DNA from: Escherichia phage EJP2 | DNA: 64,000 nt | Strand: one strand, 5' to 3' | Sequence record: OQ411014.1 | Shown here: piece by piece, positions 4,738 through 58,701 of the stretch | Position numbering within the stretch: the stretch's first letter is position 1 | How the letters are laid out: each line of letters opens with the position of its first letter | Notes under the pieces: generated by a model | The model's database searches: none | Told to the model about the DNA's origin: nothing | What the model saw: the letters and a program-made list of their open reading frames with translations, nothing else | Translations under genes and position numbers: made by a program

Positions 4738-4767
4738 TTGAGCATTCATAAAAAAATGTGATATAAT
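4738..4767 (+). promoter_or_regulatory. sigma70-type promoter driving RNA locus A
   Basis: TTGAGC (4738-4743), 18-nt spacer, TGTGaTATAAT (-10 hexamer 4762-4767); same architecture as the promoter at 58672. Confidence 0.65.
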
Positions 4768-14515: not shown

Positions 14516-14546
14516 GCAGTACTGCGATTGTAGTACTGCTTTTTTC
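14516..14546 (+). terminator. intrinsic terminator built from two AGTACT motifs
   Basis: GCAGTACT-gcgattgt-AGTACTGC followed by TTTTTTC. Confidence 0.75.
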
Positions 14547-19253: not shown

Positions 19254-19263
19254 TTTCAAATAC

Positions 19264-19293
19264 AGTACTGCTATTGTGGCAGTACTTTTTTTG
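19264..19293 (+). terminator. intrinsic terminator built from two AGTACT motifs
   Basis: AGTACTGC-tattgtg-GCAGTACT followed by a T7 run. Confidence 0.75.
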
Positions 19294-23863: not shown

Positions 23864-23891
23864 TTGACAATCTAGAATAATGTGGTATAAT
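23864..23891 (+). promoter_or_regulatory. sigma70-type early promoter
   Basis: TTGACA (23864-23869), 16-nt spacer, TGgTATAAT (23886-23891). Confidence 0.7.
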
Positions 23892-27819: not shown

Positions 27820-28258
27820 CGTAGCAGATGAGAGTAAGTGTATCTCTCATCACGTTGGTGCAGTTATAGTAAACAATGACAGGATTGTCAGTACTGGATA
27901 CAATGGCACACCACCTAAGCAGCCTAATTGCTGTGATGTGAATGCTCATCTGGTACACGACAAGACCTTACAACAATGGGTATCTGATGATGCTAAGGTA
28001 GAGCATCATCACTGGAGTCAATTACATGAGATTCATGCTGAGATGAATGCGTTATTGTATTCTTCTCCGAAGGATCGTATTGGGGCAACTCTTTACAGTA
28101 CTCTACAGCCGTGCTATACTTGCTCTTTATTGATTGCTGCTAGTGGTATCACTAAAGTGATTTATGAGAAGGGATATCCACGAACTCCACCTGAAGCTAC
28201 TTCAGTACTGGAACAGGCGGGTATTGAAATTATCAAGTTTTCTGACTTAGGGGAATAA
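27782..28258 (+). CDS. cd: dCMP deaminase (T4 Cd-like)
   Basis: MKHSTWMKIACDVADESKC parallels T4 MKASTVLQIAYLVSQESKC; HAEMNA and PCYTC zinc motifs; start may be 27785. Confidence 0.9.
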   Translation: MMKHSTWMKIACDVADESKCISHHVGAVIVNNDRIVSTGYNGTPPKQPNCCDVNAHLVHDKTLQQWVSDDAKVEHHHWSQLHEIHAEMNALLYSSPKDRIGATLYSTLQPCYTCSLLIAASGITKVIYEKGYPRTPPEATSVLEQAGIEIIKFSDLGE

Positions 28259-28260
28259 GT

Positions 28261-30633: not shown

Positions 30634-30663
30634 TTGCACATTCCAAGATAATACTGATATAAT
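30634..30663 (+). promoter_or_regulatory. sigma70-type early promoter
   Basis: TTGCAC (30634-30639), 18-nt spacer, TGaTATAAT (30658-30663). Confidence 0.65.
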
Positions 30664-39971: not shown

Positions 39972-40001
39972 TTGAGACAAAACTCAATACTATGATATAA
40001 T
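39972..40001 (+). promoter_or_regulatory. sigma70-type early promoter
   Basis: TTGAGA (39972-39977), 18-nt spacer, TGaTATAAT (39996-40001). Confidence 0.7.
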
Positions 40002-43376: not shown

Positions 43377-43420
43377 AAAATAAACAACTTAGTAAATAAT
43401 TTCATATAGGAAAACAATAA

Positions 43421-43594
43421 ATGAGCAATACAAATAAACCCCTACTGTGTGGTCACTGTTCCAAAACACTGGGTGAACATAATTCCGTTGACGCAGGGTG
43501 TCCAATTCAAGTAGGGAAACTGGTCGTGGCTTTCAGTAAATCAAAGAAATTCACTGAACATGCTCCTATTGCTAAAATGGAATTCTTTTACTAA
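43421..43594 (+). CDS. small Cys-containing protein, 57 aa (below ORF-track cutoff)
   Basis: MSNTNKPLLCGHCSKTLGEHNSVDAGCPIQVGK...; AGGA RBS; fills the gap. Confidence 0.45.
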   Translation: MSNTNKPLLCGHCSKTLGEHNSVDAGCPIQVGKLVVAFSKSKKFTEHAPIAKMEFFY

Positions 43595-46369: not shown

Positions 46370-46380
46370 TCCTCTCTAAG

Positions 46381-46405
46381 AGCGTCCTTTATGGACGCTT
46401 TTTTC
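46381..46405 (+). terminator. intrinsic terminator
   Basis: AGCGTCC-tttat-GGACGCT followed by TTTTTT. Confidence 0.8.
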
Positions 46406-46438
46406 GTTTTATGTTAATGAAATATAACAGTACTAATA

Positions 46439-46487
46439 TTGATTTAGGTCAACGTATTTTGGGCTTCATGGACGTATAATTCTTCTC
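46439..46487 (+). promoter_or_regulatory. class II FNR-type activated promoter for nrdDG
   Basis: TTGAT-ttag-GTCAA (46439-46452) matches the FNR consensus TTGAT-N4-ATCAA at 9/10. TATAAT lies at 46475-46480. The box centre (46445.5) is 41.5 bp upstream of the predicted start (about 46487). No -35 hexamer. Confidence 0.6.
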
Positions 46488-46526
46488 AATGGATGTAAAT
46501 AATTTACTAATAACAAGGAGAAGAAT

Positions 46527-48332
46527 ATGAAACATGATAAACTATACGCAGATGTGAACGATTTCTTGAGTCAGAGTAATCCTGATATTCTACAAGAGAA
46601 TGCTAACAAAGATTCCAAAATGGTGAATACTCACAGGGATTTACTCGCTGGGATACTTTCCAAACACTTCGCAGAGGAAGTTATCTCAGATGATTTGATG
46701 AAGTGGCATACTGAAGGTTATGGTCATATTCATGATTTAGATTACTACATTAGCCCGTTGACTAACTGTTGTTTAGTGAACTATCAAGAGATGCTAGAGA
46801 ATGGTTTCAAATTGGGTAATGCACAAGTTGGTTCCCCTAATAGCATTGGTGTAGCGTGTACAGTACTGACACAGATAGTACTGGCAGTTTCAGCTTCACA
46901 GTACGGTGGACAGTCCTTAGCTCACATTGATGCCGGATTAGCTCCGTATGTTCGGAAATCTCACGAACGTCTATTGAAGGAACAAGAAAAGTATAATCTA
47001 CCAGATGAATACGTTACTTCTGCTCTTGAGAAGGAAGTGTATGATTCTATGCAAGCAGTACTGTACCAAGTGAATACCATCACAAGTTCCAATGGACAAA
47101 CGCCTTTTATATCTATTAGCTTAGGTTTGGACACTTCTGTGTATGGTCGGATGATTACTTCTGCGTACTTGAAAGTTCATGAGAAAGGTCTAGGTAAAGA
47201 TGGTACTACTCCTGTATTCCCTAAAGTTATTTTCTTTTTGGATGAAGGTACTAACTTCAAGCCTAATGACCCAAATTACGATCTAAAGGTACAAGCGATG
47301 CAATGTGCATCAAAACGCATCTATCCTGACTTTGTTTCAGTACCGAAGAATAAAGAAGTAACTGGCAGTACAAGTACAGCAGTAACACCTATGGGTTGTC
47401 GTTCTTTCCTGTCACAATGGAAAAACGATGACGGTACTGAACAATACAACGGTCGCTTCAACTTAGGTGTAGTATCCATCAACTTACCGCTAATTGCTCT
47501 TGAAAGTCCGTCAGAAGAGGATTTCTATAGTAATGTGCGTCATCATATGGATATTGCATTCAGAGCACAGATGAACCGTGTAGAGCGTCTAAAGAGCATG
47601 AAAGCGAAGCAGAACCCTACACTTTTCATGGAAGGGGCAATTGCTCGTCTAAAAGCAGATGACACTATCGAAGAGCTATTTTATGATGGTTATGCGAGTA
47701 TTAGTATTGGATATGTCGGTTTAGCTGAATGTTCAGACATTTTACGTTCAGGACTGGATAAAGATTTTTGTGTAGAAATCCTGACCTTTATGAAAAATAT
47801 TTGTAATTCCTATACTGAAAACTCCAAAATCGCTTTTAGTCTGTACGGTACACCTGCGGAGTCATTATGCTACAAATTTGCGAAATGTATCGAGAAAAAG
47901 CATCCTTCAGTACTGAAACGTGATTTTATCACTAACTCATTCCATCAACCAGTTTGGGTGGATAGTACTCCATTTGAGAAGTTCAAATACGAAGAAGGGT
48001 TCTCTTTGCTCAGTAATGGTGGTAATATCAGTTACGTTGAAACTCCTAACCTTGCACAGAATATGAAGGCTCTAGAAGGTATTATTGACTATGCTTATCA
48101 CAGAATCCATTATTTTGGAATCAACCAGCCTGTTGACAGATGTTATGCTTGTCAGTTCAATGGTGAGTTCAAAGTAGATAAAAATGGGTTTCATTGTCCA
48201 CAATGTAATAACCGAGACGAAACGAAGATGTCTGTCATTAGACGTGTTTCTGGGTACTTGAGTTCTCCTAATAGCCGTCCTTTCAACAAAGGTAAGCAAC
48301 AGGAAGTAATTGTAAGGGTAAAACATAAATGA
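46527..48332 (+). CDS. nrdD: anaerobic ribonucleoside-triphosphate reductase
   Basis: 601 aa; C-terminal Zn ribbon CYACQ...CPQC and glycyl-radical motif RRVSGYLS. Confidence 0.92.
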   Translation: MKHDKLYADVNDFLSQSNPDILQENANKDSKMVNTHRDLLAGILSKHFAEEVISDDLMKWHTEGYGHIHDLDYYISPLTNCCLVNYQEMLENGFKLGNAQVGSPNSIGVACTVLTQIVLAVSASQYGGQSLAHIDAGLAPYVRKSHERLLKEQEKYNLPDEYVTSALEKEVYDSMQAVLYQVNTITSSNGQTPFISISLGLDTSVYGRMITSAYLKVHEKGLGKDGTTPVFPKVIFFLDEGTNFKPNDPNYDLKVQAMQCASKRIYPDFVSVPKNKEVTGSTSTAVTPMGCRSFLSQWKNDDGTEQYNGRFNLGVVSINLPLIALESPSEEDFYSNVRHHMDIAFRAQMNRVERLKSMKAKQNPTLFMEGAIARLKADDTIEELFYDGYASISIGYVGLAECSDILRSGLDKDFCVEILTFMKNICNSYTENSKIAFSLYGTPAESLCYKFAKCIEKKHPSVLKRDFITNSFHQPVWVDSTPFEKFKYEEGFSLLSNGGNISYVETPNLAQNMKALEGIIDYAYHRIHYFGINQPVDRCYACQFNGEFKVDKNGFHCPQCNNRDETKMSVIRRVSGYLSSPNSRPFNKGKQQEVIVRVKHK

Positions 48333-48799
48333 ACTACCAAACTATCGTAATTGATGATATGGTGAACGGTGAGGGCATTCGCTGCTCTCTGTTCGTCAGT
48401 GGGTGCAGTCATGGCTGTGAAGGGTGTTTCAACGAAAAAGCGTGGGATTATCGCTCTGGATTTGAATACACTACCAGTACTGAAGAATGTATCCTAGAAG
48501 AGCTTCAGAAGGATTATGTGAGTGGTTTATCGCTATTAGGTGGTGATCCACTCATGCCGAAGAACATTATTGAGGTAATTGCTCTTTGTAAGAAAGTAAA
48601 GGAACAATTCCCAAATAAGACCATTTGGTGCTGGAGTGGGTACACTTTAGAGGAAATCCAAGAGAATCATGCTAAGGACGTATTACAGTACTTAGATGTT
48701 CTTGTGGATGGAAAGTTCGACTTAGAGAAGTATGACAGTACTGTTCAGTTCAGGGGTTCGAGTAATCAACGAATTCTGTATAAAGGTACTGACTTTTGA
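48329..48799 (+). CDS. nrdG: anaerobic RNR activating radical-SAM protein
   Basis: CSHGCEGCFN (CxxxCxxC) cluster; 156 aa; ATGA overlap with nrdD. Confidence 0.9.
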   Translation: MNYQTIVIDDMVNGEGIRCSLFVSGCSHGCEGCFNEKAWDYRSGFEYTTSTEECILEELQKDYVSGLSLLGGDPLMPKNIIEVIALCKKVKEQFPNKTIWCWSGYTLEEIQENHAKDVLQYLDVLVDGKFDLEKYDSTVQFRGSSNQRILYKGTDF

Positions 48800-48803
48800 A
48801 TAT

Positions 48804-48826
48804 AGGCTCCTTTATGGAGCCTTTTC
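48804..48826 (+). terminator. intrinsic terminator
   Basis: AGGCTCC-tttat-GGAGCCT followed by TTTC. Confidence 0.7.
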
Positions 48827-48840
48827 TATTATAAAGGAGG

Positions 48841-48848
48841 TATAAATA
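48841..48848 (+). promoter_or_regulatory. T4-type late promoter motif
   Basis: Exact TATAAATA 34 nt upstream of the tail-fibre ATG. Confidence 0.45.
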
Positions 48849-54954: not shown

Positions 54955-54983
54955 GAGGTTGTCTATTGACAGCCTCTTTTTTT
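54955..54983 (+). terminator. intrinsic terminator overlapping the next promoter's -35
   Basis: GAGGTTGTC-tatt-GACAGCCTC followed by a T7 run. Confidence 0.7.
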
Positions 54984-54994
54984 CTTGATATAAT
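54966..54994 (+). promoter_or_regulatory. sigma70-type early promoter
   Basis: TTGACA (54966-54971), 17-nt spacer, TGaTATAAT (54989-54994). Confidence 0.7.
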
Positions 54995-57927: not shown

Positions 57928-58293
57928 ATGACAACTAAAATTTTCCCTCAGAGTCTTATGAAGGATCTATCTTACGGTTACGGTACTACTAAGGTCATGG
58001 GTGATTATAATGAAAAGACTGATTCCTTCGCACCGGATATCGAATATGAAGTCTTACACAATGAACAGTGTAATACTACTCGTTGGAACAGTGTTCATGA
58101 TTTAGTTTTTCTTGACAAGAGTACTGGGAAAACGTATCATACACAGTATGAAGTTGGTCTTACCGAATCGCAGTATTTGAGTGCATTTGACTATGATAAA
58201 GAAGGTGTCGAATGTACTGAAGTACAAACGTGGGAAGAGCAAGTTACCTATACAGTGTTAAAATGGCGGGATAAAAATGATTCAAGATATTGA
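57928..58293 (+). CDS. hypothetical protein (121 aa)
   Basis: ORF track; GGAG RBS. Confidence 0.65.
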   Translation: MTTKIFPQSLMKDLSYGYGTTKVMGDYNEKTDSFAPDIEYEVLHNEQCNTTRWNSVHDLVFLDKSTGKTYHTQYEVGLTESQYLSAFDYDKEGVECTEVQTWEEQVTYTVLKWRDKNDSRY

Positions 58294-58671: not shown

Positions 58672-58701
58672 TTGAGATGAATGAAAATTTTGTGATATAA
58701 T
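58672..58701 (+). promoter_or_regulatory. sigma70-type promoter driving RNA locus B
   Basis: TTGAGA (58672-58677), 18-nt spacer, TGTGaTATAAT (58696-58701); the TGTGATATAAT string is identical to that at 4757-4767. Confidence 0.65.

Follow-up and report, generated by a model that had tools for sequence, protein, structure and literature searches.

RESULTS

The nrdD-nrdG transcription unit.

The window analyzed here is a stretch of 64 kb of phage DNA with a G+C content of 37% and nearly all of its genes on one strand. On the plus strand, nrdD (46527-48332) encodes a class III anaerobic glycyl-radical ribonucleotide reductase of 601 aa (Pfam NRDD, E=1.5e-163; Gly_radical, E=6.5e-23) and is followed, with a 4-nt overlap, by nrdG (48329-48799), encoding the radical-SAM activase (Pfam Fer4_12, E=1.8e-53; Radical_SAM). 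The NrdD protein of the window is without the N-terminal ATP cone and is 63-80% identical to the NrdD proteins of the aligned relatives. An intrinsic terminator at 46378-46412 (plus strand) closes the upstream unit; its stem (46378-46402), formed by AAGAGCGTCC and GGACGCTTTT around a loop, has 10 pairs, 5 of them GC, and a T-rich tail, and an equivalent GC hairpin with a T-run is found 5' of the FNR box described below in relatives of the window's subgroup. A second intrinsic terminator on the same strand (48804-48830) consists of AGGCTCC-TTTAT-GGAGCCT (48804-48822) and a T-run and closes nrdDG. These terminators on both sides of nrdD-nrdG bear out the proposal of an earlier note on this DNA that the two genes form their own transcription unit.

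The intergenic region upstream of nrdD is 157 bp long and includes a ribosome-binding site, AAGGAG, at 46515-46520 (plus strand), 6 nt 5' of the ATG. The nrdD leader is predicted to be unstructured (MFE of -1.7 kcal/mol, z = +1.0) and an Rfam search of the window produced no match; on these two results, a structured leader or a known RNA family was ruled out. In three relatives, Munch (L010 3068-3430), ph0011 (L011 2757-3119) and fHe-Yen9-04 (L015 3709-4071), a small gene lies between nrdD and nrdG. This gene is annotated as a glycyl-radical cofactor or pyruvate formate-lyase (GrcA/YfiD-like) and may supply a spare glycyl-radical domain for the oxygen-damaged enzyme; it is absent from the window, where nrdG overlaps nrdD.

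Phage group and sample of relatives.

At the DNA level, the window is only 72-74% identical to the Asteriusvirus phages 121Q, PBECO4 and G17, while the NrdD protein nearest to its own is that of Erwinia phage Hallingskeid (79.5% amino-acid identity). By sequence comparison, the window belongs to the Rak2/121Q/GAP32-type jumbo myoviruses, as a divergent representative. We gathered the nrdD upstream regions of 17 distinct jumbo-clade sequences, the window included: the Erwinia phages Hallingskeid and Kaldavass, Salmonella phage Munch, GAP32 and CBB (Mimasvirus), the Escherichia phages PBECO4, fEgEco12 and ph0011 (Asteriusvirus or Asteriusvirus-like), Serratia phage BF, Yersinia phage fHe-Yen9-04 (Eneladusvirus) and six IMG/VR contigs. 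Thirteen metagenome contigs carry the phage type of the window, and their promoter region is identical to that of the window; the close metagenome strains (L072-L075) were discarded as additional evidence of conservation because an identical promoter is uninformative. The named hosts of the relatives are all Enterobacterales (Escherichia, Salmonella, Erwinia, Pectobacterium, Cronobacter, Yersinia, Serratia and Klebsiella), which is consistent with the suggestion in the earlier note that the host is a facultative anaerobe possessing FNR.

Anatomy of the region upstream of nrdD.

A putative FNR box, TTGATTTAGGTCAA (TTGAT-TTAG-GTCAA), occupies positions 46439-46452 (centre at 46445.5; no strand assigned). 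It matches TTGAT-N4-ATCAA at 9 of 10 positions; the sole mismatch is in the right half-site, whose innermost base is G where the consensus has A. A 22-bp spacer without a -35 hexamer (46453-46474, plus strand) separates the box from a TATAAT hexamer at 46475-46480 (plus strand), which we propose as the -10 element of an FNR-dependent promoter, P1, with a predicted start at about 46487. The hexamers located 16-18 bp 5' of this element (AACGTA, ACGTAT and CGTATT) each share a single one of six bases with TTGACA, and no promoter was called here by a sigma70 consensus scan. The earlier note had described a nearly perfect box at this position and a perfect TATAAT lacking a -35 hexamer; both descriptions agree with the sequence. 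It had also placed the box 41.5 bp upstream of the start, and here the arithmetic is correct: a start at 46487 puts the box centre at -41.5, with the start itself assumed to lie 7 nt 3' of the -10 element.

The distance between box and -10 element, 22 bp in the window and 21-23 bp in relatives, is that of a class II layout, in which the activator site overlaps the -35 region. The weakness or absence of the -35 element is as expected of activator-dependent promoters; the early-type promoters of this phage, by contrast, have TTGACA or TTGAGA followed after 17 bp by TGnTATAAT. The CRP-type core TGTGA-N6-TCACA is not matched, the half-sites being TTGA/TCAA in the window and in every jumbo-clade relative. 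An ArcA-like sequence 5' of the box, TGTTAATGAAATATAA (46411-46426), is not conserved in relatives and was taken as a chance match.

Frequency of the box and of the composite element.

The window has no enrichment of boxes with one mismatch or none (10 observed versus 6.99 expected), and we therefore dropped enrichment as an argument; the case rests instead on position and conservation. The box at 46439-46452 is the only one of the ten in intergenic DNA, the other nine being inside open reading frames. For the composite of such a box followed after 21-23 nt by TATAAT, 2000 first-order Markov simulations gave an expectation of 0.025 per 64 kb, both strands counted, a rarity that is suggestive of more than chance; the decisive argument comes from the comparison of relatives. 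The loci searched (L001-L070) together contain 19 perfect boxes, and 18 of them are the nrdD upstream site; in the loci compared for conservation, boxes with one mismatch or none had a background rate of 1.8e-4 per nt, equivalent to 0.036 per 200-nt upstream region. A scan of IMG/VR with TTGATNNNNATCAA-N21-23-TATAAT matched at least 120 contigs; those listed are unrelated, and none of their composite matches adjoins nrdD or nrdG. The scan is therefore uninformative about a wider FNR regulon in phages.

Conservation of the box across phages.

TTGAT-N4-(A/G)TCAA is present 90-104 nt 5' of the nrdD ATG in all 17 jumbo-clade sequences. Eleven of them have a perfect 10/10 box, mostly TTGATCTAGATCAA, and the remainder match at 9 of 10 positions. 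The same box and TATAAT as in PBECO4 are also found in 121Q, G17 and SD-6_S16, which lie outside the set of 17. Between the two deep groups of jumbo phages, DNA identity is 38% over the 40 nt upstream of the box, 46% in the spacer and 95% in the half-sites, the last value being partly circular as the alignment was anchored on TTGA-N6-TCAA; what counts is that every lineage offers such an anchor at the same place. For comparison, the NrdD proteins of the aligned jumbo phages are 69-80% identical, and identity of the neighboring 899-aa protein falls to as low as 34%.

The -10 element is more variable than the box. In the window's subgroup, all nine sequences have a perfect TATAAT 22 or 23 bp 3' of the box. 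Among the Mimasvirus-type relatives, the hexamer at class II spacing (23 bp) is weaker, reading TATTAT in CBB and BF and TATTTT in GAP32, Kaldavass, L027 and L057, and the -10 position is occupied by TTGAAT in fHe-Yen9-04 and by TTTTTT in L036. The spacer of the Mimasvirus- and Eneladusvirus-type sequences holds a terminator-like hairpin, ATACCCC-N7-GGGGTAT with a T-run, which is absent from the window; this hairpin is located between the box and the downstream TAAATA element in L013 (CBB, ~1500-1535), L014 (GAP32, ~2187-2215), L015, L016, L027, L030, L036 and L057. A second conserved block, GAACAAACGTTAAYCAAAG, is found about 12 nt 5' of the box in the same Mimasvirus- and Eneladusvirus-type relatives and not in the window.

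Three Stephanstirmvirinae (phAPEC8- and phi92-like), whose NrdD proteins are 59-62% identical to that of the window, carry 9/10 boxes 72-97 nt 5' of the ATG. These are TTGATTTCCCTCAA in Phapecoctavirus ECO340P2, followed after 22 nt by TAGAAT; TTGATCCTGAACAA in a phAPEC8-like IMG/VR contig, followed after 21 nt by TAAAAT; and TTGACTAAGATCAA in the phi92-like phage PD06, followed after 22 nt by TAAAAT. No FNR box with a properly spaced -10 element was found upstream of nrdD in T4, the rV5-like phages LL12 and PVP-SE1, the T5-like phage SP15 or the FelixO1-like phage ESh20, in all of which nrdD lies within an operon or behind an ordinary sigma70 promoter. On the sequences compared, a class II arrangement is best supported for the window's subgroup and the Stephanstirmvirinae, with the Mimasvirus group keeping the box and the TAAATA element.

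A conserved TAAATA element downstream of the -10.

A further conserved element, TGTAAATAA (46494-46502, plus strand), has its core TAAATA at 46496-46501, 31 nt 5' of the ATG. This core is found in 17 of 17 jumbo-clade sequences at an identical offset of 57 nt from the start of the box and is, besides the box, the only element common to all of the jumbo lineages, which TATAAT is not. The distance from the box centre to TAAATA is thus an invariant 50.5 bp in 17 lineages, while the spacing from box to -10 varies (22 or 23) as does that from TAAATA to the ATG (31-46 nt, with 46 in the PBECO4 type).

The late-promoter motif of CBB and GAP32 is ATAAATA; phages of this clade have a gp55-like factor, reported for CBB, and transcribe with the polymerase of the host and sigma-like factors of their own (PMC5259590). 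In the window, TAAATAA is much less frequent than expected (8 copies versus 25 +/- 4.7), and three of the six plus-strand copies sit 28-39 nt 5' of a start codon, one of these being TATAAATA before a structural gene. TGTAAATA, at 46494-46501 in the nrdD leader, matches the T4-type late promoter TATAAATA at 7 of 8 positions, and the first position of the ATAAATA motif is never an A in the nrdD element of any lineage. The T4 late promoter is an 8-bp box at -13 to -6, of which -13 and -12 vary in Aeromonas phage Aeh1 (PMC2988020). With the T4 geometry, the nrdD element would have a start at about 46507 and would place the center of the FNR box at -61.5, which is the canonical class I position (PMC3688515).

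The element is most simply read, from its sequence and placement, as a variant late-type promoter, and we hypothesize that it probably adds phage-programmed transcription 3' of the FNR promoter. If the element is late-type, then nrdDG is not severed from the temporal programme of the phage. The earlier note had proposed that these genes are wired to the host oxygen sensor rather than to the phage's own programme; footprinting across the relatives is in favor of a coupling to the sensor, while the TAAATA element makes the exclusion of the temporal programme doubtful.

The late motif also occurs elsewhere in the region. In every relative, ATAAATAC, which agrees with the published late motif of CBB and GAP32, is located 38-41 nt 5' of the neighboring 899-aa structural gene, and the window copy is TATAAATA at 48841-48848. 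This late promoter directly follows the nrdG terminator, the corresponding sites in relatives being at ~12054 (L004), ~3963 (L010), ~5961 (L014), ~5960 (L015) and ~5962 (L016). A further sequence, GTAAATAATTT at 43393-43399, lies 28 nt 5' of a small open reading frame (43421-43594) and may be another late-type promoter; the same variant motif is present at 46495-46505 in the nrdD leader.

Identity of the protein expected to bind.

A tblastn search with E. coli FNR against 50,697 phage records detected no homologue except in one 7.7-kb unannotated record labelled Listeria, and no FNR homologue was found in the 64-kb window. A phage-encoded FNR/CRP homologue was rejected as the binder on these searches, and a CRP/FNR-family protein recognizing this consensus would thus have to be that of the host. 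The FNR consensus is TTGATnnnnATCAA, and of the 23 E. coli promoters that FNR activates directly and whose start is known, 19 have a site at -41.5 +/- 4; weak FNR sites, too, are saturated at cellular levels of FNR (PMC3688515). FNR is needed for the host nrdDG (PMC2892513), in agreement with the background given in the earlier note, and the induction of nrdDG when oxygen is limiting is part of the low-oxygen response conserved among E. coli, Dickeya and Pectobacterium (PMC3349551). The phage nrdD upstream region has no NrdR box, the only match in the window being at 58056 with 3 mismatches. Carriage of a host promoter along with the gene was considered and rejected, as the region upstream of E. 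coli nrdDG differs in architecture and has no similarity to that of the phage.

Other features of the window.

The palindrome (C)AGTACT(G) is hugely overrepresented in coding and noncoding DNA of the window, with examples at 46428-46434 (5 nt 5' of the box), 14517-14538 and 19263-19286. CAGTACT occurs 312 times on both strands (11.4 +/- 3.8 expected) and AGTACT 283 times (4.4 per kb; median spacing, 189 bp); the palindrome is also dense in the jumbo relatives (2.3-3.3 per kb) and sparse in ECO340P2, T4 and E. coli (0-0.24 per kb). A literature search on this palindrome found nothing relevant.

Strong early-type sigma70 promoters form a family with an extended -10 element, TGnTATAAT, usually followed by AG or GT, and a TTGACA-like -35 element. 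The extended -10 elements are at 1866-1874, 23883-23891, 30655-30663, 39993-40001 and 54986-54994 and also at 4759 and 58693; the promoter at 54966-54994 shares sequence with the hairpin that terminates the gene before it. Two paralogous noncoding stretches (4737-~5200 and 58667-~59100) are each headed by an early-type promoter, TTTGAG-N17-TGTGATATAAT, with the latter element at 4759-4767 and 58693-58701, respectively, and have the blocks CCTGATYCACTCGAAAATGTAGAGGRCAGWTGAGTA, GAAACCCGT, CACGACCGTTG and GGAAACAGGRCAACCCGC in common. Neither stretch has an Rfam match or a tRNA, and both are candidates for a structured phage RNA. Lastly, the 441 nt at 27820-28260 were free of open reading frames by crude picking and yet read like coding sequence; relatives have an annotated dCMP deaminase nearby, and this stretch may hold a gene whose start is unusual or whose frame is shifted.

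DISCUSSION

A probable host-FNR-dependent promoter for a phage reductase.

Our results suggest that the region upstream of nrdDG is likely to be a class II promoter at which host FNR activates the sigma70 polymerase. The earlier note had proposed a class II FNR-type promoter for these genes, and this proposal has gained support from footprinting across 17 jumbo-clade sequences and three Stephanstirmvirinae, in which a -10-like hexamer is kept at a similar spacing. We infer FNR occupancy, the start site and the oxygen dependence of this promoter from sequence. During anoxia, a pre-existing [4Fe-4S]-FNR dimer of the host would bind to the palindrome TTGATTTAGGTCAA and, centered about 41.5 bp 5' of the start, would touch region 4 of sigma70 and the alpha subunits, replacing the -35 contact. 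FNR would in this way bring the host sigma70 RNA polymerase to TATAAT, with transcription starting about 7 nt downstream. In the presence of oxygen, the FNR cluster and DNA binding would be lost and the promoter would fall silent. The transcript is predicted to span only nrdD and nrdG, bracketed by terminators, such that the oxygen-labile reductase and its activase would be produced when they are able to work. As the box is kept in every relative examined, these phages very probably read oxygen through the FNR protein of their hosts. Phage T4 ADP-ribosylates the alpha subunit of RNA polymerase after infection (PMC2988020); by analogy, a similar modification of the polymerase by these phages may confine the action of FNR to an early period.

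The simple class II model does not account for the invariant distance of 50.5 bp between the box and TAAATA, and another arrangement has to be weighed. FNR might work chiefly, or in addition, at the TAAATA-type promoter further downstream, from the class I position at -61.5, contacting the C-terminal domain of alpha in a polymerase carrying a gp55-like late factor, in which case the TATAAT promoter would be a subgroup-specific addition. The offset between box and TAAATA is fixed in 17 of 17 sequences whereas the -10 spacing and the distance to the ATG vary, the -13 to -6 placement of a late box (PMC2988020) leads to exactly the canonical class I position (PMC3688515), several Mimasvirus-type relatives are without a good class II -10 element, and the clade has both the ATAAATA late motif and a gp55-like factor (PMC5259590). 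Nevertheless, we regard this arrangement as rather unlikely: T4-type late promoters use the sliding clamp and no such activator is known for them (PMC2988020), every lineage has another base in place of the first A of ATAAATA in the nrdD element, TATAAT is perfect at class II spacing in 9 of 9 members of the window's subgroup, and the Stephanstirmvirinae retain the class II geometry without a clear TAAATA. A variant that would account for the invariant distance is one in which a single FNR dimer serves two stacked promoters, the sigma70 class II promoter (-41.5) and a late-type TAAATA promoter 20 bp further downstream (-61.5). We give this variant a similarly small chance of being correct. If it is true, the host oxygen sensor would activate, through alpha, a polymerase bearing a gp55-like factor, and nrdDG would be oxygen gated both early and late.

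Two other explanations would dispense with FNR altogether. The palindrome could be the operator of a phage-encoded or other non-FNR protein whose site resembles the FNR consensus. Palindromic operators are common, and the central nTAG bases are 81% identical, beyond what FNR is known to need. This explanation is nonetheless improbable, given that 11 lineages match the host FNR consensus at 10 of 10 positions and the others at 9 of 10, at a canonical activator distance from the -10 element; that no FNR/CRP-family protein was found in the window or, bar the Listeria-labelled record, in the phage collection; and that the palindrome is unique to the region upstream of nrdD in loci L001-L070, while a regulator made by the phage should have further sites of action. 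Alternatively, an AT-rich palindrome may by chance lie beside a chance TATAAT and have no regulatory role. Near-consensus boxes are indeed about as frequent in the window as expected (10 versus 7) and the composite scan of IMG/VR returns many unrelated matches. Against these points stand the expectation of 0.025 composites per window and the retention of the box in 20 of 20 lineages amid flanks of near-random identity; a chance origin of the box is refuted by this conservation, and a chance resemblance is the least credible of the explanations, being very improbable indeed.

Significance.

A full-text literature search brought up no account of an FNR site in any of these jumbo phages. The promoter tables of the CBB genome paper have no entry for orf141/nrdD, and FNR is unmentioned there (PMC5259590). 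Class II FNR promoters are known, as are lytic-phage genes steered by a host sensor (PhoB; PMC10976474); what is new is the phage nrdDG case and the unusually wide range of phages in which it is found. CBB carries both aerobic and anaerobic ribonucleotide reductases (PMC5259590), and FNR control would explain a switch between aerobic and anaerobic reductases in the gut, in plant tissue and in sludge. If our interpretation is correct, a large family of strictly lytic phages (the Rak2/121Q/GAP32-type jumbo phages together with the phi92- and phAPEC8-like phages) relies on the FNR protein of the host to sense oxygen. FNR would then join the few environmental regulators of hosts that have been shown or suggested to direct metabolic genes of lytic phages. 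Several phages of this family already serve, or have been put forward, as agents of therapy and biocontrol against E. coli, Salmonella, Klebsiella, Erwinia and Pectobacterium.

Comparison with known systems.

In its core and in its location 31-38 nt 5' of the ATG, the nrdD element nnTAAATA agrees with the late promoters of the clade, as described for T4-type phages and in the CBB/GAP32 motif, but differs from all described late promoters in its fixed distance from an FNR box, which is seen in none of them. The homologous enzyme of T4, NrdD (sunY), is 47% identical, and its gene has no FNR box with a -10 element at the right spacing. The putative phage promoter resembles the class II FNR promoters of E. 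coli (nirB, narG, dmsA and ydfZ) in having TTGAT-N4-ATCAA about 41.5 bp from the start, here a predicted one, in the predicted replacement of the -35 element and in its sigma70 -10 element. It differs from these promoters in lying in a lytic jumbo phage, in driving a phage gene pair and in having no evident sites for NarL/NarP, IHF or other co-regulators. The cyanophage genes with pho boxes under the control of host PhoBR provide a parallel in which a site for a host environmental sensor precedes metabolic genes of a lytic phage (PMC10976474). The signal in that system is phosphate rather than oxygen, and the two systems also differ in regulator family, in target genes and in phage group; moreover, the cyanophage case has support from EMSA and transcriptomes, whereas the putative nrdDG case draws on sequence comparison. 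A functional counterpart is the host nrdDG promoter of E. coli and Salmonella, where the same enzyme pair is under FNR (PMC2892513), as is predicted from sequence for the phage. The host promoter has two FNR-like sites, TTGAGCTACATCAA and TTGATGCAAAGCAC, NrdR boxes that overlap these sites and a long leader, whereas the phage promoter has one site, no NrdR box and no sequence similarity to it, and the phage NrdD of 601 aa without an ATP cone is shorter than the host enzyme. Judged by this comparison, the putative phage nrdDG promoter is an independent wiring of the enzyme pair and not a transferred host promoter.
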